Positions 7,805 through 29,000 of a stretch of 64,000 bases of DNA are shown here, in pieces. Positions within the stretch are counted from its first letter, which is position 1. Every line of letters begins with the position of its first letter. The notes below the pieces were generated by a model, which was not told the DNA's origin, made no database searches, and saw nothing but the letters and a program-made list of their open reading frames with translations. The DNA is taken from positions 192,596-256,595 of the forward strand of contig DATKGN010000013.1 of NCBI GenBank assembly GCA_035510735.1, in the 5' to 3' direction. The position numbers and the translations under genes are program-made. Source of the DNA: Patescibacteria group bacterium (GTDB taxonomy: Bacteria > Patescibacteriota > Microgenomatia > UBA10105 > UBA927).

Positions 7805-8311
7805 TTAAGTTATTTTTCCTAATTTGAACAAACGGTTATTCCACTCGCTTCGCTCGGGATTTCGCTTCAAAGCCAGTAGTCGCTCAAATTGTCTATCGCG
7901 CTCTTTGGCAGCCGCCGCTTCGGCATTCGTTGGGTTAGCGCGGAAAACTGCCTGCTGTGCGTAAATCGCAGAACCATACGCATGTCTCGGCACGTGGACA
8001 GTCGCAACAGCCTGACCGCATGCGCGGGCAGCGGATCTGGCCGGGCTATCCTCTCCCACATCACGGGCCGCGGCGTGCGAATCAAGCGACACCTTCCGAA
8101 TAACAGCCATCTTAAAGATTCCGTCACCTATCCATTTTTGAAGCGTTTCAATTGCCTTTCGGGGCCGATCATCATCGGGATATTTGTCTTCGAAGAATGG
8201 GAGAACGTGCTGGGCGCACTCAATTGCCCACTTGGCTAATACCTTGTGGTCTGTCTTTCCCACAAGCTCTAGCATTTCAGGATCTTTGTGTGTGATTACA
8301 AATTTTTTCAC
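7805..8311 (-). CDS. hypothetical all-alpha protein (possibly Imm5-like immunity-protein family; from memory only)
   Basis: 168-aa ORF. Its DNA is visibly more GC-rich than its flanks. A decayed duplicate of its 3' end lies at 7352-7412. Confidence 0.5.
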   Translation of the reverse strand: MKKFVITHKDPEMLELVGKTDHKVLAKWAIECAQHVLPFFEDKYPDDDRPRKAIETLQKWIGDGIFKMAVIRKVSLDSHAAARDVGEDSPARSAARACGQAVATVHVPRHAYGSAIYAQQAVFRANPTNAEAAAAKERDRQFERLLALKRNPERSEWNNRLFKLGKIT

Positions 8312-8616: not shown

Positions 8617-8700
8617 ATTGACAGTACTATAAATATTGTAGTACTATAATTTATGTAGCAGTATATTACTACAGAAACGATTATAAAGTAAAGGCGTTTC
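8617..8700. promoter_or_regulatory. divergent promoter/operator region with palindromes GTACTATAAATATTGTAGTAC and TGTAGcagtatattaCTACA
   Basis: TTGACA-N17-TAGTACTATAAT promoter-like element at 8618-8650, and inverted repeats between the HxlR gene and the quinone reductase gene. Confidence 0.35.
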
Positions 8701-8770
8701 TGAGTATAGACCCATCTAATCACATTTTTCGTCGAGGCGACTCCAAATCTGAGTAAGATGGGATCTATAT
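8700..8770. repeat. inverted-repeat element (TGAGTATAGACCCAtCTA ... TGAGTAAGaTGGGATCTA), copy 1
   Basis: Arms tagacccatcta / agatgggatcta pair. A second copy at 25195-25300 has arms tagacccacct / aggtgggatcta, a compensatory C-to-T and G-to-A change, with an internal hairpin gtcgaggcgac. It lies in the 5' UTR of the reductase gene. Confidence 0.5.
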
Positions 8771-8781
8771 ACCAAAACATT

Positions 8782-17064: not shown

Positions 17065-17937
17065 ATGCCGATTGAAAATCCAGCGCAGTACCACGAATCC
17101 GGTCCGATGCGGATAGAAGGCTTGTTTGAACCCTCCGCGTTTGAGGCGTTTGATTTGGTTGATTTTGGCGACTCCCCTTTTCCTCTCGTAATCGGACTGG
17201 TAAGGTGGCCTTCGGGCACCAGGATAAAAGCATCCTGCATAGAGGGAGGTTATCCTCTAGCAGAAATCTCGAAAGTCCACGATCTCGACCGAACTCACCG
17301 ATTTACGGGTCCTGTCATCTCTTCACAGGAGCCCGCGGAGCCGGGCGTTGTCATGGCCCATGTGAAGTACGCGCCGGGAACAGACGTCTATATCATCAAG
17401 GAGGGTTACGACGGCAAATGCGGCATCTATGATGTACACGTCAATCCGTTTGGCTATATAGATGAGGAAGACGCAGCATTACGCGCGGAAGCTCTCAATC
17501 ACATGCAGGAACGGGACACCCTTCAGGCGCGGCTTGCAAAATCTAAGAACGATTTAGAGATTGCAAGAATTCTGCTTTCCGGTCAGGAGTTTGATATAGA
17601 ACATAATCAGAAAGAGATCGAAGATTTAACAAGAAGAATCGCTGAGTTGGAATTAAACGGCGGTATAAAGGATCAAACACAGGTTGACCTCTCGGTCCTC
17701 GGACTACGCGGTGTCGGCTTCAATGAACTGGCTGGCGCGGATCAAGCGGAACTATTGTCGGCAATTGAGAAAGAATTGTACCGGTCTCTTCACCCCGACC
17801 GTTTCGGCGGTTTAGGGCGCGATGTCAGTCACCTTCAGGATGCGGCGACAAAGATCATTCAGCTGAAAATCGCCGCCATCGGGAGGTTACGAAACAGATA
17901 CGCGATACGAAAATACGATCCGCCCCATTCGTATTAA
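17065..17937 (+). CDS. hypothetical protein with central coiled coil
   Basis: 290-aa ORF; LQARLAKSKNDLEIARILLSGQEFDIEHNQKEIEDLTRRIAELE. Confidence 0.4.
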   Translation: MPIENPAQYHESGPMRIEGLFEPSAFEAFDLVDFGDSPFPLVIGLVRWPSGTRIKASCIEGGYPLAEISKVHDLDRTHRFTGPVISSQEPAEPGVVMAHVKYAPGTDVYIIKEGYDGKCGIYDVHVNPFGYIDEEDAALRAEALNHMQERDTLQARLAKSKNDLEIARILLSGQEFDIEHNQKEIEDLTRRIAELELNGGIKDQTQVDLSVLGLRGVGFNELAGADQAELLSAIEKELYRSLHPDRFGGLGRDVSHLQDAATKIIQLKIAAIGRLRNRYAIRKYDPPHSY

Positions 17938-18027: not shown

Positions 18028-18546
18028 ATGCAAAGCATTAATCAGACGCAAGCTGCTATTGCTAAATATCAAGTTGCAATAAATAAAAATATCTCTGAAA
18101 GTGAAATTCTTTGGAACCGATACAACGCTCTATTAGTTTTTAATTCAATACTCATAACGGCGATAGGATTTTCATATCAGGGGAACTTAAACCTACCATT
18201 ACTTGTGGTTGCCAGCTTGCCAATCGCGGGGCTTCTGTCGTGCTATTTGTGGTTTATCGTCACACTTCGCGGTTTTCAGTGGATAAAATTCTGGACAGTT
18301 ACAGCTAGAAAGATCGAAGAAAAATATCTACCTGATGATAATCCTATTTTAAATCCGATAAATAATGGCAAAAATCATAGGGAGGATGTTGTTGGGTGGC
18401 CTAAAACTCAAATAGCATCTTATATATTAATTTTGGTAACAGCTATTTTGTATCTTATTTTTTTAGCCAATCTACTGAATACAAAATCGTTTCACAAAAA
18501 TATTTTTCATTCACAACAACGAACAATGCACCGGTATATTAAATAG
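18028..18546 (+). CDS. hypothetical membrane protein (3 TM)
   Basis: 172-aa AT-rich ORF with hydrophobic helices. Confidence 0.4.
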   Translation: MQSINQTQAAIAKYQVAINKNISESEILWNRYNALLVFNSILITAIGFSYQGNLNLPLLVVASLPIAGLLSCYLWFIVTLRGFQWIKFWTVTARKIEEKYLPDDNPILNPINNGKNHREDVVGWPKTQIASYILILVTAILYLIFLANLLNTKSFHKNIFHSQQRTMHRYIK

Positions 18547-18584
18547 TGTTACTTTTTGTTAGACCCTCTAGGTAGGTTTCTACT

Positions 18585-18625
18585 TCACACCCTTCGTAAT
18601 CGCTCCTCCGTGGGATCAAAGTACA
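18585..18625 (-). repeat. decayed copy A of ABC-exporter 3' terminus (most degenerate)
   Basis: Minus-sense ...cccacggaggagcgattacgaagggtgtgaagtag aligns, with indels, to the real terminus ...ccgcggacacgctatcgttgaggaagcagagtaa. Confidence 0.45.
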
Positions 18626-18722
18626 AGAGAAATTAAAGCTTTAGCTTGTCGCGAATGGTATAATTGCGCTGAAGTAATAATTGAACTGCGACTCTATATC
18701 GGTCTCTAATTTACTATATTAC

Positions 18723-19604
18723 ATGAAAAAGGCACAGGTTTTTATAAGCTGTGGACAAAAAGATGATAGCGAAAAAGTCTTTGGAGAATATTTAGAAAAA
18801 TACTTCGTGGCTCGTGGTTTTGACACATATTTCGCTGAAGAAGTTCATAGCTCCAAGCCCCTATTACTGAGCATATTCGACGCTCTTAAAGAAAGTGAAT
18901 ATTTTGTTAGCGTTAACCCTCATAGAAAAGAAACGGGCGATACAGGTTCAATATTCGTTCAGCAAGAAATTGCGGTCGCTTCTTCATTAAGAATGCCTAT
19001 TATTGCATTTCATCAAAAGGGAGTACGAAGAACAAATGGTATGTCTGGGGGCCTCCATCTTAATAGCATTGAGGTTAATGAACCGAGAGAAATGAAGCAT
19101 CTGTTGGGCAAGGTCACTGCTTTGTGGGATAACACATCTAGAAATCAGCTTTTCCTGAAGATAGCTAATCCAAGTCTAAATATTCTAAATCAAAACAGTC
19201 AACTTACAAATTGGTGGCATATCTCTTGTCGGAATGGATCAAGTCTTAAACACGCAAAAGGATGTATGGCTTATATAGATAAAATTTTTGGTGCAAATAG
19301 AAAAAATATAATAACTATACCTTATAAATGTGAAATAGTGTGGGCTGGAGTAGGAATACATAGCATAACAATTGCTAAAAAAACTGAGAGGGATTTTGAC
19401 GCCATATTTACATTCAACGGATCAGGCGTATGGCACCCACAAATATTACAAACATCAACTATATACAAATATCCTTCATTAACAGATGGCATATATAATA
19501 TTGAATATTTAGTTGTAAGTGATAATTTTCCCGACGCGAGATTATTAGTTAAATTGAAGCTTCAAAAAGATATTATGACAGTCATAAAACAAAGACAATT
19601 ATAG
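18723..19604 (+). CDS. TIR-like (TIR_2/DUF1863-type) domain protein with unknown C-terminal domain
   Basis: N-terminus VFISCGQKDDSEKVFGEYLEKYF...EYFVSVNPHRKETGDTGSIFVQQEIAVASSLRMPIIAF follows the TIR_2 pattern (vFISY..D ... S.W...E). The roughly 170-aa C-terminal half is beta-rich and unassigned. Confidence 0.5.
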   Translation: MKKAQVFISCGQKDDSEKVFGEYLEKYFVARGFDTYFAEEVHSSKPLLLSIFDALKESEYFVSVNPHRKETGDTGSIFVQQEIAVASSLRMPIIAFHQKGVRRTNGMSGGLHLNSIEVNEPREMKHLLGKVTALWDNTSRNQLFLKIANPSLNILNQNSQLTNWWHISCRNGSSLKHAKGCMAYIDKIFGANRKNIITIPYKCEIVWAGVGIHSITIAKKTERDFDAIFTFNGSGVWHPQILQTSTIYKYPSLTDGIYNIEYLVVSDNFPDARLLVKLKLQKDIMTVIKQRQL

Positions 19605-19619
19605 TCGAATGATATAACT

Positions 19620-20456
19620 ATGAAGAGAAAACTTATCGACGTTCCTATTCAGTATGAGAGCATTATAAAAACTGCCTTTATTACAAGAACAAAATCTATA
19701 AATGACTTTAAGGAACGTGATTTTAAACGTTTAATTAAAGCTGTGCGGGATAGTGGCATTAAGAATAGATATGTCCTATCAGATATTGATAAGGATAATT
19801 ATCTAGTTCCTGACACTGATTTAACCGTGACTGTCATTAAAGATAAAAACCCTACAAGCGCAATTTCGCTAAATAAGGCTCTTCAGAGGATAAGAGAAGA
19901 TGATGTTAATCCGAAAGCATTTTTGATTTCCTCGCAAGAGGTGATCTTAACGGATGATCATATTAATAGACTCATTAAAGTGTTAAACGACGACCCTACT
20001 CTTCTTGTAGCTGGGTATAAATTTACCATTAAGGATGAAGAATTAAATAGTGAGTTGCAGTGGTATTATGCAAGGAAAAAATTGATAGCGTTTAAGGTGC
20101 CCTGGAATACCTGCGCCCTCTGGAATTACAAGTTATTCGATAAGTACGTGGAAGAGTTTGATGAAATCACGACTAAAAACCCTTTTAACCCAGTGTGTGT
20201 TTGTATTGATAACGTCTGCAGTCAAACAGAACACGTGGGAATGGAGGATGGGCTTGCTATTGCAAAGGCATTGACTCAAAATGAACGTCTAAAATACAAG
20301 TTAATAAGTGCGGACCCACCACTCTGTTGGAAAGTCAATGTTGATAGAATAAATGAACATAGGAAAAAACTTGCCAGAAAAGATACAGTAATGCGAGATT
20401 TTATGGAGGTTAAAAAATATTCTATCGATAAGTCACGAAATGCTAGGATGGAGTAG
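19620..20456 (+). CDS. hypothetical protein, possibly GT-A-fold glycosyltransferase-like
   Basis: C-terminal VPWNTCALWNYKLFDKYVEEFDE...GMEDGLAIAKAL resembles the GT2 acceptor/ED motif region; weak. Confidence 0.35.
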   Translation: MKRKLIDVPIQYESIIKTAFITRTKSINDFKERDFKRLIKAVRDSGIKNRYVLSDIDKDNYLVPDTDLTVTVIKDKNPTSAISLNKALQRIREDDVNPKAFLISSQEVILTDDHINRLIKVLNDDPTLLVAGYKFTIKDEELNSELQWYYARKKLIAFKVPWNTCALWNYKLFDKYVEEFDEITTKNPFNPVCVCIDNVCSQTEHVGMEDGLAIAKALTQNERLKYKLISADPPLCWKVNVDRINEHRKKLARKDTVMRDFMEVKKYSIDKSRNARME

Positions 20457-20550
20457 ACCTGTCCTGGAGTACCGAATTGATAGGTTCCTACTCAATATCC
20501 TCCGTAATCGCCCTTCCGCGGAATTGGGAAATATACAAATCGGACGGAAA
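20457..20550 (-). repeat. decayed copy B of ABC-exporter 3' terminus plus conserved downstream segment
   Basis: Minus-sense gatttgtatatttcccaattccgcggaagggcgattacggaggatattgagtag reads DLYISQFRGRAITEDIE*, versus DLYNSQFRGHAIVEEAE* in the real gene. It starts 15 nt after the stop of CDS 20555..21265. Confidence 0.7.
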
Positions 20551-20554
20551 TTCT

Positions 20555-21265
20555 TTACGAACTCGTTCCACTAGGTTTATCTTTCAACCATCTTCTGGAA
20601 GTATATATTAACCTGCCGTTAAACGGTCCGCTGTGATTAGGATCGAGTTTTGATAAATTCTCAACTAAAACCCTGTCATCCGCAGACAATTCATGCAACC
20701 TTTCCAGTAGGTTTTCCAATAAATTATTGTCATGAAAGTATCCCCGCAGGTGATACTTTTCACTCGATTGTTTGATTTTGTTCATGCTATCCTCTAAGGC
20801 TTGATATGTATCATCAGCAAGGAGCGTAAGCTGTTGAATCCGATAATCATCCTCATGTGTAAATCGAAACAACGCAATACTTGCGCCCATATATGTTCCG
20901 AGCATAACGGAGGGGTTTCTGATTGTGCCGATTATATAATCCGTTGATTGATGTAAAAGATTATTTTCTTCTGGGGTTCTTGAGGTTTTTGCACAAAGAG
21001 CTTCGCCCATCCACGCCATTGTTGTCATATTGCATTCTACTAATGATGAAACTACAACCACTTCGTCATCACTCTCAGTAGGAAACCTATCGACCAGAAT
21101 CTGAAGAACTTCAGTCGGTTTCTGCAAAAAAAATGATTCAACTTTAGCCCTGTATTCAAATGGACTGCGGGTTTTTAATAGATTATCGACCGATTGAGCA
21201 AGAGTTATAATATTTTGATCGTTTTGCGGAGGTAATATTTGCTTCGGAGCACCTTCATCTATCAT
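20555..21265 (-). CDS. hypothetical protein (236 aa), cassette gene
   Basis: MIDEGAPKQILPP...; no motif recognised. It is flanked by copies C and B. Confidence 0.45.
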   Translation of the reverse strand: MIDEGAPKQILPPQNDQNIITLAQSVDNLLKTRSPFEYRAKVESFFLQKPTEVLQILVDRFPTESDDEVVVVSSLVECNMTTMAWMGEALCAKTSRTPEENNLLHQSTDYIIGTIRNPSVMLGTYMGASIALFRFTHEDDYRIQQLTLLADDTYQALEDSMNKIKQSSEKYHLRGYFHDNNLLENLLERLHELSADDRVLVENLSKLDPNHSGPFNGRLIYTSRRWLKDKPSGTSS

Positions 21266-21299
21266 ATGAAGAACGATACAATATTCTGTAATTCGTGTC

Positions 21300-21395
21300 C
21301 AATTTCATCCTGACAGATGTACGAATTATTGTTTACAATTCCATAACCGCCCGGCCGCGGAATTGGGAATTGGAGAGGTCGGCGTATTTCATAAA
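21300..21395 (-). repeat. decayed copy C of ABC-exporter 3' terminus plus conserved downstream segment
   Basis: Minus-sense reads FMKYADLSNSQFRGRAVMEL*, followed by ACAATAATTCGTACATCTGTCAGGATGAAATTGGA. Copy E has the related GGAATAATAATTGTACATCCGAGGGACGGAATTGGA. Confidence 0.7.
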
Positions 21396-21451
21396 GTCGG
21401 AGCGCAGCACGTATGAGATCTCCACAGACGTATTTATTCGGCAAAAATTAA

Positions 21452-22723
21452 TTAAGAATCGAAGGAAGACAAAAAAGCATTTAACTTTTCCGATAATGCT
21501 TTCCAAAGTGGTTTGATTACAAACTTTGCTTCCTCATCAATTTCCGAACTGAATTGCGATGTTGCAATGGCGTACCTTTTTTCAAGTTCAGTTTTCATAT
21601 AACGCAAACTATTTTGTGCCTGAGGAGATACAGATTCCGGAAGTAATCCCAATGCGGTAAGGGCGTAGAAAAAAGTCAAAGCATCTCTTCTTAACGAAGG
21701 TAATACTACTGTTTCAAGTGATTCGCCTGAATGCGTATCTTTACGATCAATTTCCACGGCAGGCATGACTACATCCTCAGATCCGTTTAAAATTTTTTCT
21801 GCAACAGACTCCGACAAATAGTTTAGAGCATCTCGATACGTTGGTATTTCCTGAACCCTGTCTGTTGGATCAAGTTTTTTTAACCCATAACCATATGGAT
21901 TATTTTTTGTAGCCATATCCATATATATTGAATATAGGCCATCCGGAGTTGTAAGAACACCGTCATAACAGGCAACAGTCATTGAATCTCTGCTTATTAC
22001 CTGTCTTTCTGGGTGTCGAATAAATTTACCCAATTTTTTTATTGTTTCTTCGTTCACTTCTTTGGCAACCCTAAATTGTCCCTCAATATACTTTGCATCT
22101 AAACCCAACGTGTAGAGTTGTCTTTTGATTGAATAAACTGTTTCTTTATTTGAATCGGTTATAGAAAATCTTACGGTATGAAGCGAGGTGTCGTTATATA
22201 AAGTTATATCACGCTTCGAAACGTCCTGAAGATGCTGAAGAAGTTTAACAACTATTGCTTCAGTTCCTTTCGGAACAGTAGTGGATGTATATATTTTTTG
22301 TTCACGCCGTAAATGCGGAATTAATGCGGAAACCACATCATCGTAATCATATGAAGTCCCGTCTTGTCTGTTGCCGCTTATATCAAACGGGTCAGACGCC
22401 CAATAGAGTGCGACCCGTTCAGGCAGATACTTCGCGTATTTTGTAGCAAATTGAGTGAATGACTCAAAATCAAAACCTGATGTAATTTTACGTTTAACAT
22501 CAAAACTACACCATGGGCAACCTCCAGTACAACCATCTGTAAATTGTAGATGCTGCATACCTTTTAATAGGGATTGTCTGACCGGTTCGGGGAAGGCCTC
22601 AAACATTTGGAGAATGTCAACAGGATCTCTGTTCCTCCTCATCTCTATGAGAGAATATATTCTGTCTGTTATTGGGAAATTGTTTGATTGGGGTGTTAGA
22701 TCTGATTGTCGTGATTCCGGCAT
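21452..22723 (-). CDS. putative radical SAM protein (atypical; CTGGCPWC = Cx3Cx2C)
   Basis: 423 aa with the single cluster QFTDGCTGGCPWCSFD at residues about 60-75. No SPASM or second cluster. C-terminal 150 aa is helical. Confidence 0.45.
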   Translation of the reverse strand: MPESRQSDLTPQSNNFPITDRIYSLIEMRRNRDPVDILQMFEAFPEPVRQSLLKGMQHLQFTDGCTGGCPWCSFDVKRKITSGFDFESFTQFATKYAKYLPERVALYWASDPFDISGNRQDGTSYDYDDVVSALIPHLRREQKIYTSTTVPKGTEAIVVKLLQHLQDVSKRDITLYNDTSLHTVRFSITDSNKETVYSIKRQLYTLGLDAKYIEGQFRVAKEVNEETIKKLGKFIRHPERQVISRDSMTVACYDGVLTTPDGLYSIYMDMATKNNPYGYGLKKLDPTDRVQEIPTYRDALNYLSESVAEKILNGSEDVVMPAVEIDRKDTHSGESLETVVLPSLRRDALTFFYALTALGLLPESVSPQAQNSLRYMKTELEKRYAIATSQFSSEIDEEAKFVIKPLWKALSEKLNAFLSSFDS

Positions 22724-22794
22724 GTCTAAATTCTATCATGTAAAGTAATTATTTCTTAATTCGTCATCGGGTAAGAGAAATTTATTACTGGATT

Positions 22795-22850
22795 TCTGTT
22801 CCGAACTCTCCGTAATCGCTCTCCCCCGAAACTGGCTGTTATAAGGGTGG
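22795..22850 (-). repeat. decayed copy D of ABC-exporter 3' terminus
   Basis: Minus-sense reads HPYNSQFRGRAITESSEQ; about 60 nt upstream of the radical SAM start. Confidence 0.65.
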
Positions 22851-22930
22851 GCGTGTTCAGATGAGCCTATAGTTGACTTTTGAAAACTACTTCCTATAAT
22901 TGAGAATAACTTGTTTCTATTTTAGATTGT

Positions 22931-23521
22931 ATGAATACGCACCACGAAATAGCTGAAATATCCCAAGAGTTTGTGGGAATAGACGACTCACTCAGAGCCG
23001 ATATATTAAACGGTTCTCACGAATGGTTACAATCATACATAACTGTTGTCTCTGAAATTGATAACCGGTTATCAGATAAAAATCCTGACCGGATTATCAG
23101 CGGACTCCTCATTGACGAGCTTAAATACAATAAAACTCAGGAACTACAAGCGGCGGCCCTTACTATTCACCGAGCTAAAGACGCGCATACGAGGCCGGAT
23201 GCACGGGACTGGAAAAGAATACAGGGAGCTATCGGGCATGACTGGTTTTATGCTGCGCTCATTGTACAAGTTTTTGGTGACCGAATGCCGGAAGCCTGCC
23301 ATACTTTTTTGGCAAAACAAGTAGACGACATAAAACCGTTTGTCAGGCAGGTCGTGACGACAAACACACCACTAGATCCACAAGAGATGTGGCATCCGGT
23401 AAAGAGCTTCCAACATGCTTTGGAGCGCATTCGGGAGAGACCTGAACTTGGGGTAACGCAGGAAGATGTTAATTACGCCCGGGAGCAACTGCTGTCAATC
23501 GGTAAACTCAATCGCCACTAG
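22931..23521 (+). CDS. hypothetical protein (196 aa), cassette gene
   Basis: ORF with a plausible start; no motif recognised. Confidence 0.4.
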   Translation: MNTHHEIAEISQEFVGIDDSLRADILNGSHEWLQSYITVVSEIDNRLSDKNPDRIISGLLIDELKYNKTQELQAAALTIHRAKDAHTRPDARDWKRIQGAIGHDWFYAALIVQVFGDRMPEACHTFLAKQVDDIKPFVRQVVTTNTPLDPQEMWHPVKSFQHALERIRERPELGVTQEDVNYAREQLLSIGKLNRH

Positions 23522-23528
23522 AGTAGAT

Positions 23529-24044
23529 TCAAAAATATTCCTCAGAATTTATTCCTTCTTTTTTCATTCTATCTGAAGCCTCCCTTAATAGCGGATTCAG
23601 TTGCCTGCACGCATATATACCTACTTCCTTTAAGCCTAACGCTTCAAAAGCTTCAGGTTCGCTATAATCATTTCTATCTCTTCCTTCTCCTGCTAAATTA
23701 ACCTTATGCATAAGAAGCTCGTTGTAAACTTGATATTGATTCAGTGCGGTATCGATTTGTCTAACAAGGTCTCTATTATGTTCTAAGAACTGGGCCCATG
23801 GTCCTGCACATTCTGCTTCCACGCGATTTAAAGGTACATACAAATTTTTCCTGTATTCCTGAGGGTCAGCTGCTTTTTCAGCTCCAAACAAAGATTGAAA
23901 AAGTCTCCAAAAATTGTTGCCAAACAACTCAGGGTCGTTGGTTCGCTCAGAGGGAGTAAATTCGTCTGGTGGTACTTTCGGTGCACGTATTACCAGATCA
24001 ACATAATAATCGTGGGGATGGCTTATTGGTGCACGGTCGTTCAT
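23529..24044 (-). CDS. hypothetical protein (171 aa), cassette gene
   Basis: Convergent with the previous ORF; no motif recognised. Confidence 0.4.
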   Translation of the reverse strand: MNDRAPISHPHDYYVDLVIRAPKVPPDEFTPSERTNDPELFGNNFWRLFQSLFGAEKAADPQEYRKNLYVPLNRVEAECAGPWAQFLEHNRDLVRQIDTALNQYQVYNELLMHKVNLAGEGRDRNDYSEPEAFEALGLKEVGIYACRQLNPLLREASDRMKKEGINSEEYF

Positions 24045-24089
24045 TTAGAGGATCATATCAAACTATAACATCTTGTCAAACTTTTGAGG

Positions 24090-24172
24090 AATGTTCCAAT
24101 TCCGTCCCTCGGATGTACAATTATTATTCCTTATCCTAAGTAACCGCCCCCGCGGAGAACTTCTGTTCTCAC
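24090..24172 (-). repeat. decayed copy E of ABC-exporter 3' terminus plus conserved downstream segment
   Basis: Minus-sense cagaagttctccgcgggggcggttacttag reads QKFSAGAVT*, followed by an AATAATTGTACATCCG...GGACGGAATTGGA block shared with copy C. Confidence 0.55.
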
Positions 24173-24457
24173 CGCCTTAAGGCCGCATCTCTTATAGGTC
24201 AAGATGCGGCACAAAGGGCCGTAATTCTCACTATGTATGAACGCATTAAGAAACGAGCCCTTAAGGCCGCATCTTTTAATAACTTGATCGATTTAGACCC
24301 GCGTGTTTGTCGTCATTCTGGCGAGCGAGTCAACGAGAGTGTCCAGAATCCCAACCGGATGCTGGACAAGCCAGCATGACGAGAAAACCTTTCCAAACGA
24401 GCCCTTAAGCTATTCATCAGTTTCGGGTTATACGATACGACTCTTAACTGAAAGGGG
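24172..24457 (+). other. hairpin- and repeat-rich non-coding region (candidate sRNA or regulatory leader) upstream of CDS 24458..25033
   Basis: Direct repeats aaacgagcccttaaggccgcatct at 24172-24191 (partial), 24252-24278 and 24396-24411 (partial). Hairpins ggccgcatct-N11-agatgcggc, attctgg-N21-ccagaat and atgctgg-acaag-ccagcat. Confidence 0.3.
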
Positions 24458-25033
24458 GTGATATATATCGTTACTAAAAAACAAATACTAACAGCCGCAG
24501 CTTCCATCGCCATAATCGGATCAGTCGTCGCAGTTCCTATGCCGGCATACGCCGCAGGGAATGGCTTTTTTGGAGGGAGTAATTTTCTCTCCAATTTTGT
24601 CAACTTTTTCTCACAAAAGTTTGGACTCGACAAAACGCAGGTTACCAATGCCATGAATGACTTTCACACGCAGCAAATGGCAAATACCACACCGCGTCCG
24701 ACGCCGACCCAACAGCAGATGGATGCACGGGAAAAGGCCAGGCTCGATCCGCTGGTGACTTCGGGCAAGATAACAGCAGCTCAGGAGACGGCGATCATCG
24801 CCGAGCTTGACGCATTGCATACGAAATATCCACCTTCGGCCGGACAAACATCGGATCAACGGAAAACCCAGATGCAGAACATGCAGAACGACTGGAAAAC
24901 GTGGGCTACAGCCAATAATATCGATCCGACCATCGTAGGCGCCGCAGGCGTGGGCATGATGGGAGGCAGAGGAAGAGGGTTTGGAAGAGGAAATTGGGGT
25001 AAAACTACTCCAACTCCAACACCGACCCCGTAA
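24458..25033 (+). CDS. secreted hypothetical protein with signal peptide and C-terminal TPTPTPTP tail
   Basis: GTG start at 24458 after RBS AAAGGGGG (start uncertain). KKQILTAAASIAIIGSVVAVPMPAYAAG signal peptide; Gln/Met-rich; ends GRGRGFGRGNWGKTTPTPTPTP. Confidence 0.45.
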   Translation: MIYIVTKKQILTAAASIAIIGSVVAVPMPAYAAGNGFFGGSNFLSNFVNFFSQKFGLDKTQVTNAMNDFHTQQMANTTPRPTPTQQQMDAREKARLDPLVTSGKITAAQETAIIAELDALHTKYPPSAGQTSDQRKTQMQNMQNDWKTWATANNIDPTIVGAAGVGMMGGRGRGFGRGNWGKTTPTPTPTP

Positions 25034-25123
25034 TTAAGCAATATCGCCAACCAAAGCACCCTGATAAGTCAGGGTGCTTTGAAACGTACTTATTAAACCT
25101 AGAAAATAGATTGTTCTCCACAT

Positions 25124-25185
25124 TCAAAGTCGCGGCCCTCCGCAGAACTGAGAATTAGAGGTCGGCGTATACCACAAAAACTCAT
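25124..25185 (-). repeat. decayed copy F of ABC-exporter 3' terminus
   Basis: Minus-sense reads FLWYTPTSNSQFCGGPRL*, versus real GFYADLYNSQFRGHAIVEEAE*. It lies 120 nt downstream of the real stop. Confidence 0.6.
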
Positions 25186-25194
25186 TTCGTAACT

Positions 25195-25300
25195 AAGTTT
25201 TTGAGTATAGACCCACCTAATCAAATTTTTCGTCCGAGGGACTTGTCCCGCACGAAGCCTGGGATCTAGCGACAAATTTGAGTAAGGTGGGATCTAAAAT
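25195..25300. repeat. inverted-repeat element, copy 2 (see 8700-8770), abutting the ABC-exporter stop codon
   Basis: ttgagtatagacccacctaatcaa ... ttgagtaaggtgggatctaaaatcc, with internal hairpins gtccgagggac and ttgtcccgcacgaagcctgggatctagcgacaa. Confidence 0.5.
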
Positions 25301-25303
25301 CCT

Positions 25304-27265
25304 TTACTCTGCTTCCTCAACGATAGCGTGTCCGCGGAATTGGGAGTTATACAAATCAGCATAGAAGCCTTTTTGGGCAAGGAGCCTTTTATGTGTCCCC
25401 TTCTCTATAATTGCCCCGTGATTCATGACGAGGATGAGATCGGCGTCGCGGATGGTTGAGAGCCGGTGGGCGATGACAAAACTCGTCCTACCCTTCATAA
25501 GCTTCCCCATGGCTTCCTGAATAAGAAGTTCAGTCCGGGTATCGACGCTGCTCGTTGCTTCATCAAGGATAAGGATCTCGGGATCAGCCAGGAACGCACG
25601 GGCGATAGTGAGAAGTTGTTTCTGGCCTTGGGAAATGTTCGTGGCGTCCTCGTTTAACACCATCTTGTAGCCCTCAGGAAGCGTCCGTATAAAGTGGTCG
25701 GCGTAGGCCTCTTTTGAAGCCAATACGATTTCTTCCTCCGTTGCATCTTCGCGGCCGTAAGCGATATTATCCCGGAGCGTCCCATGGAAAAGCCAGGTAT
25801 CCTGTAAGACCATACCGAACATTCGGCGAAGATCGGCGCGTTTGAGTTTTGTGATATCAACGCCGTCAACCAAAATTTTTCCGCCGTTCACTTCGTAGAA
25901 ACGCATGAGTAAATTAACGAGGGTCGTCTTGCCGGCTCCGGTCGGTCCCACAATGGCGATCATATGACCCGGTTTTACATCAATATTCATATCTTCAATG
26001 AGGATCTTATCTTTGCTGTATCCGAATTTGACGTGCTCGAATTTGACGGCACCCTTTGGTTCTTTGATAACCTCAGGTTTGGCTATTTCCTTGACCTGTT
26101 CTTCCTCATCCAAAAGCTCAAAAACCCGCTCGGCGGAGGCGATTGCGGACTGGATGACGTTTGCGATATTGGCAAGCATGGTGATGGGCTGGGAAAATGA
26201 AGAAGAATACTGGATAAATGCCTGCACGTCACCGATTGAAATGGCGCCCTGTGTGGCCATGATGCCACCGACGACTGCGACGAGGACGTAGCCAACGTTA
26301 CCGACAAACCGCATGAGCGGCATGATGATACCGGAAACAAATTGCGCCTGCCATCCGGCTTCATAAAGGCTGTTATTGAACACATCAAACTGGGCGATCG
26401 CTTTGTGTTCATGCCCGAACGCTTTGACGATCTTGTGCCCCGAATACATTTCTTCGACGTGACCGTTTAAGTCACCGAGTGACCGTTGCTGTTTCCGGAA
26501 GAAATCCTGTGAGCGTTTCGCAATACCGGTCACGACAAATATGCTAAGAGGAAGTGTTGCAAGCACGATGAGTGTTAGCTGCCAGCTAATTGAGAGCATC
26601 ATGATAAGAACACCGATGAGAGATACGACGGAGGTAATAAGCTGCGTCACGCTCTGCTGGAGCGTCGAGCCGATGTTATCCATATCGTTAACCGCGCGGC
26701 TTAAAATTTCTCCGTGCGTACGCCCGTCGAAGTATTTGAGCGGCAATCGCGAGAGTTTTTCATCCACCTCTCGGCGCAATTTGTAGATCGTACGCTGCGC
26801 AACACCTGCCATCAGGAATTGCTGGATGAAAATAAAAACAGAGCTTATGACATAGAGTCCGAGCAAAATAAGAAGAACCCTTCCGATATAGCCGAATTCG
26901 ATGCCGGGAACGGGCGCCAGATGGAGAGGAAGTGTGGGGTTCGCAAGCAATTGCTTTTGGACGACGGAATTTTTTACCTGCACGATGAAACTCGCAAGCA
27001 AATCATTGAAAAGCTTGGTGGTCGCGAGTCCCAATATTTTCGGGCCCACAATGTTAAATATCGTACCCATGATGGCTGAGATAACGACGATCGAAAGGAG
27101 AGTTTTTTCCGGTCGGAAATATCCTAACAGTCTCTTGAGTGTCCCCCCGAAATCTTTTGCCTTCTCGACCGGCCTGCCCATAGCACCCCAGCCGCCCCGA
27201 TTCATGGGGTTCGCATGCACTTCATCACGCGGTTTATTTTTTAGTTTGGTTGCGTCATCACTCAT
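25304..27265 (-). CDS. ABC exporter, fused permease/ATP-binding subunit (MdlB/MsbA-like)
   Basis: 653 aa: 6-TM domain then an NBD with Walker A GPTGAGKTT, LSGGQ-like ISQGQKQLLTIARA, and Walker B ILILDEATS. Confidence 0.9.
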   Translation of the reverse strand: MSDDATKLKNKPRDEVHANPMNRGGWGAMGRPVEKAKDFGGTLKRLLGYFRPEKTLLSIVVISAIMGTIFNIVGPKILGLATTKLFNDLLASFIVQVKNSVVQKQLLANPTLPLHLAPVPGIEFGYIGRVLLILLGLYVISSVFIFIQQFLMAGVAQRTIYKLRREVDEKLSRLPLKYFDGRTHGEILSRAVNDMDNIGSTLQQSVTQLITSVVSLIGVLIMMLSISWQLTLIVLATLPLSIFVVTGIAKRSQDFFRKQQRSLGDLNGHVEEMYSGHKIVKAFGHEHKAIAQFDVFNNSLYEAGWQAQFVSGIIMPLMRFVGNVGYVLVAVVGGIMATQGAISIGDVQAFIQYSSSFSQPITMLANIANVIQSAIASAERVFELLDEEEQVKEIAKPEVIKEPKGAVKFEHVKFGYSKDKILIEDMNIDVKPGHMIAIVGPTGAGKTTLVNLLMRFYEVNGGKILVDGVDITKLKRADLRRMFGMVLQDTWLFHGTLRDNIAYGREDATEEEIVLASKEAYADHFIRTLPEGYKMVLNEDATNISQGQKQLLTIARAFLADPEILILDEATSSVDTRTELLIQEAMGKLMKGRTSFVIAHRLSTIRDADLILVMNHGAIIEKGTHKRLLAQKGFYADLYNSQFRGHAIVEEAE

Positions 27266-29000
27266 GGGATTCCTCTTCTATCTCTGCCGCCGATAATTGC
27301 GACGTGACGATTCCGCGATAAACATCGCACGTCTTCATAAGATCGTTATGGCGCCCGTGTCCGACAATTTTTCCGTCGTCAAGGACGATGATCTGATCGG
27401 CATCTATAACCGTACTTACGCGCTGGGCCACAATAATGACGGTCGCCTCCCTGGTCTCTCCCTTAAGGGCTGTACGAAGTCGCGCGTCAGTTTTAAAGTC
27501 GAGTGCGGAGAATGTATCGTCAAATACGTAAATCTCAGGTTTCCGTACAAGCGCCCGGGCAATAGAAAGACGCTGCATCTGTCCGCCTGAAACGTTGGTT
27601 CCGCCCTGGGATATACGGGACTCAAACCCCTCCGGCATCTTCGAAATAAAGTCTGTGGCCTGCGCGACATCAGCCGCATGTTTGATTTCGGATTCCTTTG
27701 CGTCTTCTTTGCCATAGCGTATATTTTCATTAATCGTCCCTGAAAAAAGTACTGCTTTTTGCGGCACAAATCCGATCTTCGCTCGAAGCTCAGCCTGCGT
27801 CACCTCGCGGGTATCAACGCCGTCGACCAAAATTTTGCCCTTTTCCACATCGTAAAAACGCGGGATAAGATTCACCATGGTCGATTTACCCGACCCGGTG
27901 CCGCCGATAATGGCCGTCACTTCTCCAGGGGCGGCCGCGAAAGAAATATCAGTGAGGGCCGGTTTCTCCGCACCGTGATAGCTGAAAGTAACGTTGTCAA
28001 ACTCAACATATCCTTTTTGTTTTGAGGGAGATCTCTTTTTTTTCGGGTCGTTGATTTCCGGCTCCATAGCCATTACCTCGTTAATCCGGGTGGCCGATGC
28101 TTCAGCACGCGGGATCATAACAAATGTGACGGCGACCATGAGAAGCGAAAAAAGGATCTGGAATGCATACTGCAAAAACGCAAACATGGCCCCCAGTTCC
28201 AGCTTATCGGCAGCTACCCTGCGGCTTCCGAACCAGATGATGGCGACACTTGATACGTTTATCGTGAGCATCATGACCGGCATCATCGTCGCCATGAGCT
28301 GATTGACTTTTATTGCTATATTTGTCACGTCGTGATTGGCTACATCAAAGCGCTCCTCCTCGTGTTTAATCCGGTTAAATGCACGCACGACCCGCACTCC
28401 GGTAAGGTTTTCATCAAGAATCAAATTTAATTTGTCCAATTTGACCTGCATAACGCTAAATAGTGGAATGGCTTTAATTAAAAGCACAACGATAACAGCC
28501 ACAAGAAACGGCATGATCGCAACGAGTACCCATGCGAGTCCCACATCCTCATGGAGGGCTAAAATAATGCCGACAACAAGCGTAATCGGGGCGGTAATAA
28601 GGAGGTTGAAAATCATCACCATGACCTGCTGAATCTGGTTGGTGTCGTTGGTCGTCCTCGTGATAAGCGATGCAGTACTGATGGTGTCAAACTCATGAAG
28701 CGAAAAGTGCTGGACTTTTTTGAAAATATCGGCCCGCATGAGCGTGCACATGCCTGTAGCTATCTGGGAGGAATAATAGGTTCCGACGACCGCACAGATT
28801 GTGCCCGCAATAGCCACAAGAGCCATGAGGCCACCGGTCCGCCAGATAAATGCCGTATCAAACGCCGAAATGCCTTTATTGACGATGTCCGCCATGAGGG
28901 TTGGGAGGTAGAGGTTAGCAACCGACTGCCCGATTGCCAGGACAAAGACAAGGATCAGAAGATATTTATATGGCCGAAGATACTTTAATAGTTTAAGCAT
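27258..29000 (-). CDS. ABC exporter, fused permease/ATP-binding subunit (MdlA-like partner)
   Basis: 580 aa: TMD then NBD with GGTGSGKST, VSGGQMQRLSIARA and IYVFDDTFSALD. An 8-bp overlap with the partner gene indicates a heterodimeric exporter. Confidence 0.9.
   Translation of the reverse strand: MLKLLKYLRPYKYLLILVFVLAIGQSVANLYLPTLMADIVNKGISAFDTAFIWRTGGLMALVAIAGTICAVVGTYYSSQIATGMCTLMRADIFKKVQHFSLHEFDTISTASLITRTTNDTNQIQQVMVMIFNLLITAPITLVVGIILALHEDVGLAWVLVAIMPFLVAVIVVLLIKAIPLFSVMQVKLDKLNLILDENLTGVRVVRAFNRIKHEEERFDVANHDVTNIAIKVNQLMATMMPVMMLTINVSSVAIIWFGSRRVAADKLELGAMFAFLQYAFQILFSLLMVAVTFVMIPRAEASATRINEVMAMEPEINDPKKKRSPSKQKGYVEFDNVTFSYHGAEKPALTDISFAAAPGEVTAIIGGTGSGKSTMVNLIPRFYDVEKGKILVDGVDTREVTQAELRAKIGFVPQKAVLFSGTINENIRYGKEDAKESEIKHAADVAQATDFISKMPEGFESRISQGGTNVSGGQMQRLSIARALVRKPEIYVFDDTFSALDFKTDARLRTALKGETREATVIIVAQRVSTVIDADQIIVLDDGKIVGHGRHNDLMKTCDVYRGIVTSQLSAAEIEEESHE

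Follow-up and report, generated by a model that had tools for sequence, protein, structure and literature searches.

Remnant copies of an ABC-exporter gene end border small accessory units in a Patescibacteria genome

The exporter gene end and its six remnants

Patescibacteria (the candidate phyla radiation, CPR) have tiny genomes, and to our knowledge little has been learned about how these bacteria acquire accessory genes. Here, we describe a locus in a 64-kb stretch of Patescibacteria DNA (the whole stretch is called the window below) in which the gene for an ABC exporter is followed by six partial copies of its own 3' end, with small gene units lying between them. The exporter gene is intact (25304..27265, minus strand; 653 aa with ABC_membrane and ABC_tran domains in Pfam) and comes second in a gene pair for a heterodimer, with the partner gene at 27258-29000. 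The rest of the window holds housekeeping genes (Obg, GreA, Era, GluRS, AspRS, RecJ, SecDF, MiaA, MiaB, RNase Y). The functional 3' end of the exporter gene is referred to as REF, and the six downstream remnants as F to A, with F nearest to the gene and A farthest from it.

Repeats were sought over the whole 64 kb by single-sequence nhmmer, by Smith-Waterman alignment compared with shuffled sequences (SW), and with a profile built from six of the copies. A preliminary description of this DNA had reported six extra copies of the exporter 3' end, and all six are present, at positions that agree with it to within a few bases. They are direct repeats on the minus strand that copy the last ~45-70 nt of the ABC gene, and they fall into two allele types, I and II. 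REF itself (25299..25370, minus strand; …GFYADLYNSQFRGHAIVEEAE and stop; profile E 4e-14) is the working end in use and is attL-like, that is, like the left attachment site of an integrated element; its best DNA matches elsewhere are the ABC ends of relatives. Copy F (25109..25185, minus strand) is of type II with a 2-nt deletion that shifts the frame, and matches copy C (nhmmer E 5e-4, SW z 13). Copy E (24094..24172, minus strand), also of type II, is the most decayed. Copy D (22785..22860, minus strand; type I) matches B (nhmmer E 4e-3, SW z 6.7), and copy C (21296..21400, minus strand; type II, YADLSNSQFRGRAVMEL and stop), which carries an extension past the stop, matches B as well (nhmmer E 1e-3, SW z 10.5). 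Copy B (20481..20554, minus strand; type I, DLYISQFRGRAITEDIE and stop) is the best preserved (REF-B nhmmer E 3e-5, SW z 12) and begins at the stop codon of a 236-aa gene (20555..21265). The last copy, A (18573..18634, minus strand; type I, frameshifted), matches B (nhmmer E 1e-4, SW z 14) and lies ~40 nt from the stop of a convergent gene for an 8xMP-family membrane protein (18028..18546, plus strand; Pfam PF24838, E 9e-14).

The six-copy profile returns exactly seven sites in the window, REF and A to F, with copy E next-best at E 0.11; its SW z of 10.4 against C indicates that this weakest-looking copy is real and related to C. Outside 18.5-25.4 kb, nhmmer gave no comparable match to the repeat copies in the 64 kb. 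The pairs REF-F, REF-D and REF-A are not individually significant against shuffles, as would be expected if the resemblance were due to chance or to some generic dispersed repeat that overlaps the gene end by accident, but this explanation is effectively refuted. The transitive links have z values of 6.7-14, and the peptide is kept through synonymous codons. Repeats of the repetitive extragenic palindrome (REP) or miniature inverted-repeat transposable element (MITE) type occur in many copies at unrelated loci; here there are no copies in the window outside the array, and in 2.3 Mb of related loci the matches are true ABC 3' ends only, which upholds the earlier view that the repeats derive from the end of the ABC gene and are not generic REP elements.

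Homology to the gene starts within a span of ~12 nt in copies B, C, D and F, at 57-69 nt before the stop. Conservation of the repeat is highest in its TTCCGCGGAA palindrome. The CCGCGG core ascribed to all copies is exact in REF, B, C and E, but reads CTGCGG in F, TCGGGG in D and CCACGG in A. Similarly, the ~35 nt past the pseudo-stop that had been described as common to C, E and B are shared by C and E (p<0.002) but not by B (p=0.24). In both C and E this extension leads into the promoter-like region of the cassette downstream, with a promoter-like site in the C extension upstream of the next gene (TGGACA-17-TATCGT) and another directly after E (TTGACA-16-TATGAT, 24079-24052, 11/12 matches), which argues that each copy belongs with the unit downstream of it. 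The copies are not progressively degenerate, as had been proposed, since the fifth copy, B, is the best preserved and F, E and A are the worst.

Some independent short-read contigs of the same strain end inside copy A (18600, the end of L172) and inside copy D (22795, the start of L173), and breaks in contigs L080 and L172 fall at ~23620, twice in one sample. Contig ends inside repeat copies number 2/18, which is not significant.

The units and their cargo

As proposed earlier, the repeats delimit units of one or two genes, and every copy sits between gene units. In register, from the gene outward, the unit lengths are 194, 988, 1326, 1469, 839 and 1908 bp. Open reading frames (ORFs) of at least 70 aa were taken from a greedy non-overlapping call (71 in the window) and scanned against Pfam at E<=0.01 within 13.7-30.7 kb and at E<=1e-5 elsewhere, and homologues of the cargo proteins were counted in a search among 5.8e9 proteins.

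The 194-bp unit between REF and F is gene-less, and its sole content is a hairpin element of the MITE/REP-like kind (25197..25296, minus strand; fold -34.7 kcal/mol, z -3.2). The element is ~80-100 nt long and has a second copy at 8697-8775 (minus strand), in a divergent intergenic region beside a gene for an Imm5_like protein. A 21-nt arm, GATTAGRTGGGTCTATACTCA, gives 2 matches where 0 are expected, and the folds of the two copies have z values of -3.2 and -4.0. Neither copy (25197-25296 or 8697-8775) matches Rfam, and the pair looks like a MITE/REP-type element.

Unit 1 carries a 191-aa ORF of unknown function (24458..25033, plus strand) that is called as a gene on independent contigs and has no match in Pfam, NCBIfam or PADLOC. 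Beside it, a non-coding stretch of ~410 nt (24045-24457) contains the repeated motif TTAAGGGCTCGTTT and, at 24170-24300, a long hairpin (-46.4 kcal/mol, z -4.0). Rfam has no match for this stretch, which might be an RNA not yet annotated or what is left of the end of an element. Unit 2 carries two genes of unknown function, for 171 aa (23529-24044, minus strand) and 196 aa (22931-23521, plus strand), neither of which has a match in four profile libraries.

The cargo of unit 3 is a 423-aa protein with a CxxxCxxC motif (21452..22723, minus strand), previously called radical SAM. The motif is invariant in seven homologues, but there is no Pfam match, and Foldseek gives weak matches (E>=0.04) to MiaB, viperin and HydG; a radical-SAM-like protein is plausible. 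It has only 6 homologues among the proteins searched, and the four of their contexts that were examined are all different. Unit 4 carries the 236-aa gene that abuts copy B (20555..21265, minus strand), the product of which is an orphan with no homologue but itself in the same search.

Unit 5 (18681..20456, plus strand) holds two genes. One encodes a 278-aa glycosyltransferase of GT-A fold (19620-20456, plus strand; AlphaFold2 pLDDT 94.6; Foldseek match to PDB 6yv7, E 8e-7), for which there are 65 homologues, the named ones mostly from CPR, in three examined contexts that are unrelated single-gene settings. In the contexts examined, no ABC gene or remnant lies near homologues of the 423-aa or 278-aa proteins. 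The other gene encodes a protein of ~293 aa (18723-19604, plus strand) with a possible N-terminal TIR-like domain, 5/30 relatives weakly matching TIR_2 (best E 0.001). An N-terminal FxSCGQ…E motif is invariant in its family, which is unannotated and numbers ~566 representative clusters, and the protein may be a TIR-like enzyme that forms a pair with the GT-A glycosyltransferase beside it.

The remaining cargo ORFs have no matches or marginal ones in Pfam, NCBIfam, PHROGs and PADLOC, and annotation for defence systems and phage genes gave nothing significant in PADLOC or PHROGs. Cargo orientation is mixed, with 4/8 cargo genes on the opposite strand, and promoter-like sites (11/12 matches) occur within units. 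The cassette genes had been described as more AT-rich than the exporter, and G+C is indeed low in 18-23 kb (G+C 34-39%, compared with 45-50% in the flanks) but not of the two units nearest to the gene, which are like the flanks at 43-48%. Judged by its homologues, the cargo is rare and patchy, and its genes move one at a time across CPR contexts.

Origin of the remnants

The exporter protein has 85% aa identity to a homologue in Candidatus Gottesmanbacteria and 82-84% to other Patescibacteria copies, and its C-terminus is strongly conserved across phyla, with GFYADLYNSQF present in almost every one of 146 alleles. Synteny with the closest relatives (L001, L002, L003 and L021, ABC protein ~75-85% aa identity) spans 25.3-31.3 kb, an operon of two ABC genes, MarR and two membrane-fusion proteins, and breaks exactly at the ABC stop codon. 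Genes of 13-25.2 kb have no homologue near any of ~160 related ABC loci, so that the pre-insertion (empty) site is not reconstructable. The 8xMP gene (18028..18546), a homologue of which is likewise absent near every related ABC gene, either adjoined the ABC gene from the start or came as cargo with the oldest unit.

The exporter (25304-29000 in the window, compared with loci L004-L079) is also 60-75% identical at the aa level to homologues in Ktedonobacteria, Paenibacillus and Clostridium, and shows 79-82% identity to contigs that bear the label Chloroflexota or Chloroflexia (L004, L005). This similarity across phyla suggests transfer of the operon between phyla, or contigs misbinned in metagenome-assembled genomes.

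Codon alignment of REF, B, C and D shows that the copies differ mainly by synonymous changes. Within the YNSQFRGxAxxE block there are 7 synonymous and 2 non-synonymous codon changes between REF and D (P<2e-4 against random mutation), 6 and 1 between B and D, and 8 and 3 between C and D (P<=2e-4 against random mutation for both). Copy D encodes SQFRGR as AGC CAG TTT CGG GGG AGA, with codons wholly synonymous to those of REF, while REF and B have TCC CAA TTC CGC GGA at the same codons, followed by CAC (His) or AGG. The codon variant TACGCCGACCTC for YADL in C and F, and the variant AGCCAGTTT in D, are both also found in functional alleles of relatives. Copy C is 73% identical to the functional ABC end of L087 and 65% to REF, and copy D is 69% identical to working ends of other lineages and 54% to REF; across the 2.3 Mb of related loci, D finds its best matches in true ABC 3' ends. 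Along the array, type I (B, A, D and perhaps REF) alternates with type II (C, F and E). From these comparisons, the remnants are not copies of the resident end in neutral decay; the synonymous differences, together with the closeness to ends of other lineages, imply that each remnant was once the working end of a diverged allele.

As the origin of the array, we give somewhat better than even odds to accretion in tandem, in which small integrative elements would have built up at an attachment site that the ABC gene carries in its 3' end. Small elements would have integrated one after another, site-specifically, at an attachment site overlapping the last ~60 nt of the gene. Each incoming element would bring its own copy of the gene end within its attachment site (attP) and so complete the ABC gene after integration, while the previous end and everything behind it would be displaced further downstream at each insertion, and each remnant would thus be paired with the cassette downstream of it. 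The preliminary description had likewise read the layout as serial integration at a bacterial attachment site (attB) overlapping the gene 3' end; the anatomy agrees with this, and the codon analysis, with the pattern that element-borne replacement ends predict, adds support. Accretion accounts for the common orientation of the copies, their similar 5' limits and the mark that purifying selection has left in the displaced ends, as well as the linkage of each copy to its downstream cassette, the break of synteny at the stop codon and the foreign, patchy cargo.

Decay of tandem paralogues, in which several copies of the ABC operon would each have been reduced by deletion to the last ~60 nt, would also explain the synonymous differences, provided that the paralogues were under selection. 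The whole ABC operon is in fact tandemly duplicated in two other genomes (5.7 and 11.8 kb in L011, and 5.5 and 11.8 kb in L062). It would, however, take six independent deletions of ~3.7 kb each, with endpoints within ~12 nt and cargo left untouched, and 5' limits within a 12-nt span in B, C, D and F are not expected from random deletions of paralogues. As no longer ABC fragment is left anywhere in the array by tblastx, and the cargo is compositionally foreign and orphan, we regard this origin as very unlikely.

The resemblance of the remnants to alleles of other lineages would also follow if foreign DNA with an ABC-family 3' end had been taken up (for example by natural transformation) and anchored at the conserved gene end by Campbell-type homologous or homology-facilitated illegitimate recombination, with no recombinase involved. 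Conservation of the ABC C-terminus across phyla means that many donors would offer short homology, and no recombinase was found in the window. Set against this, 60 bases at 55-75% identity are a very poor substrate for homologous recombination, and double-crossover or anchor-type events replace the resident end without duplicating it. A single crossover would require a circular donor with only the terminal ~60 nt, six times and with nearly the same 5' limit, which is the signature of an attP; moreover, no related genome has even one such event. Capture of this kind is therefore unlikely, if less so than paralogue decay.

Under site-specific accretion, the elements would since have lost their own recombinase or would never have had one, and integration was probably the work of a recombinase that is encoded elsewhere or has disappeared since. 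The outcome would be six units without mobility genes, of 0.19-1.9 kb, equivalent to the cis-mobilizable elements (CIMEs) of streptococci, one of them gene-less and of microCIME size. Several observations weigh against accretion. No integrase, resolvase or transposase was found by Pfam among the 71 ORFs of the window, as the preliminary description had also noted. When each of 137 homologous ABC 3' ends from elsewhere was used to query its own downstream DNA, 0/137 had even one downstream remnant, and the only extra matches were the two full operon duplicates (L011 and L062); the gene is thus not a widely used attachment site. Profile nhmmer over 162 related loci (the 2.3 Mb) likewise found no array and no single remnant. 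Viral contigs yielded no element with an attP. The copies are not more decayed the farther they lie from the gene, as they should be under the simplest form of the model, with the newest unit next to the gene, and the order of the integration events can be proposed only tentatively. Finally, nine contigs, which come from six samples or assemblies, match the window at 100% identity and keep its cassette order.

The attP search in viral contigs gave 0 matches to the type II pattern and 8 to the type I pattern, all of them chance by profile score and context.

Among the nine contigs there is no excision junction, gain, loss or differing number of cassettes, and present-day mobility is not supported; the array is presumably now static. 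This bears on the idea that the copies are live sites of a cassette system still active, with units shuffled, excised and captured in trans, like an integron or a tycheposon satellite but anchored in coding sequence. The uniformly small, recombinase-less units bounded by repeats in one orientation would suit such a system, as would the high conservation of the TTCCGCGGAA palindrome and the cargo genes that travel singly in other CPR genomes. Nevertheless, F, D and A carry frameshifts or many mutations in the putative core, attC-like folding is absent, gene orientations are mixed and homologues of the cargo elsewhere lack adjoining repeats, and with the array identical across six samples or assemblies we find continuing activity decidedly improbable.

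Comparison with known systems

The closest likeness to an accretion array of this form is found in Streptococcus salivarius and S. thermophilus, in which CIMEs (1.2-13 kb) and microCIMEs (130-220 bp), decayed derivatives of elements that are integrative and conjugative (ICEs) or integrative and mobilizable (IMEs), form tandem arrays at the 3' ends of rpmG, rpsI, fda and rplL (PMC7563491). A protein-coding target thus does not set the present array apart, as had been claimed, because integrase-less tandem CIMEs and microCIMEs at 3' ends of coding genes are already documented (PMC7563491). In both cases, direct repeats from the 3' end of the target bound the units, the target gene is intact, the units lack recombination and transfer genes, and glycosyltransferases are among the cargo. 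Cargo units of the array measure 0.84-1.9 kb, compared with 1.2-13 kb, and its gene-less unit of 194 bp compares with 130-220 bp.

The arrays differ in that six units stand in a row here, compared with at most three reported (PMC7563491), and in that the host is from CPR/Patescibacteria and the target is an ABC exporter. The streptococcal CIMEs were detected only in tandem with a functional ICE or IME (PMC7563491); no functional ICE, IME or integrase lies beside the ABC target, and the 64 kb yielded no signature gene of an ICE or IME. The cassette ORFs contain no integrase, relaxase, coupling protein or type IV secretion system gene (Pfam and NCBIfam; nothing significant in PHROGs or PADLOC). 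The locus therefore has the structure of a CIME/microCIME array, with neither derivation by deletion from an ICE or IME nor a tandem arrangement with one in evidence in the window.

In the tycheposon islands of Prochlorococcus, successive integrations push older elements inward and leave partial tRNAs behind (bioRxiv 10.1101/2020.12.28.424599). The array agrees with this picture, in that partial copies of its target lie dispersed among small cargo modules of a streamlined genome. The defining features of tycheposons are nevertheless lacking: the target there is a tRNA gene and here a protein-coding gene, and tycheposons carry a tyrosine recombinase or fragments of one, of which there is no trace here. 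No Rfam family, tRNA included, has a match anywhere in the window.

The array was also likened to an integron, with which it shares one- or two-gene units, a recurring repeat that resembles a recombination site, and a fixed anchor. This comparison fails on attC hairpins, on IntI and on one-way promoterless cassettes. Folded as single-stranded DNA, 6/7 copies have z values of -0.9 to +0.3, with no attC-type hairpin, and there is no Phage_integrase-type match in the window that could represent the IntI of an IntI/attI/Pc platform. In contrast to integrons, the repeat of the array is a piece of coding sequence, gene orientation is mixed and the cassettes have promoter-like sites of their own.

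At icd, phage 21 and e14 supply a substitute 3' end, so that the gene stays functional and the displaced host end remains. As at icd, the displaced and current ends of the ABC gene differ mainly at synonymous sites, which fits element-borne replacement of the gene end. SGI1 at trmE is another element that targets a gene 3' end (PMC2297512). Those elements are single, large and integrase-encoding, whereas the present array consists of six minimal integrase-less units; in particular, none has an integrase gene adjacent to the attachment site within the element.

Accretion at gene 3' ends is thus already known, and the locus reveals no new mechanism; what is new is the phylum and the target gene, together with a run of minimal units that is unusually long and clean. 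If formed by accretion, the locus would preserve, as a clear fossil record, no fewer than six separate acquisitions at a single site, each marked by a displaced gene end. The glycosyltransferase cargo may alter the cell surface, and other cargo genes are found almost nowhere else. A responsible recombinase, if found in the full genome, would come with a defined attB/attP pair and might serve as an integration tool for an uncultivated lineage; if no recombinase exists, the array would point to a route of capture independent of recombinases. A bolder proposal, to which we give little credence, is that the conserved end of the ABC-exporter gene serves CPR bacteria as a landing pad for mini-cassettes that lack a recombinase and each consist of a ~60-nt 'gene-end adaptor' and a promoter; the cassettes would be taken in, and perhaps swapped, either in trans or following DNA uptake. 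If true, this would be a cassette system anchored in coding sequence and distinct from integrons and tRNA-targeting islands.

Two further genes of the window were noted. An Imm5_like putative immunity protein (7805-8311, minus strand; Pfam E 7.5e-39) is encoded with no evident toxin partner close by. Just past the last repeat copy, a 290-aa protein (17065-17937, plus strand) is without a Pfam family, and its C-terminal 'LHPDRFGG' motif and weak HscB match suggest a J-domain-like tail.

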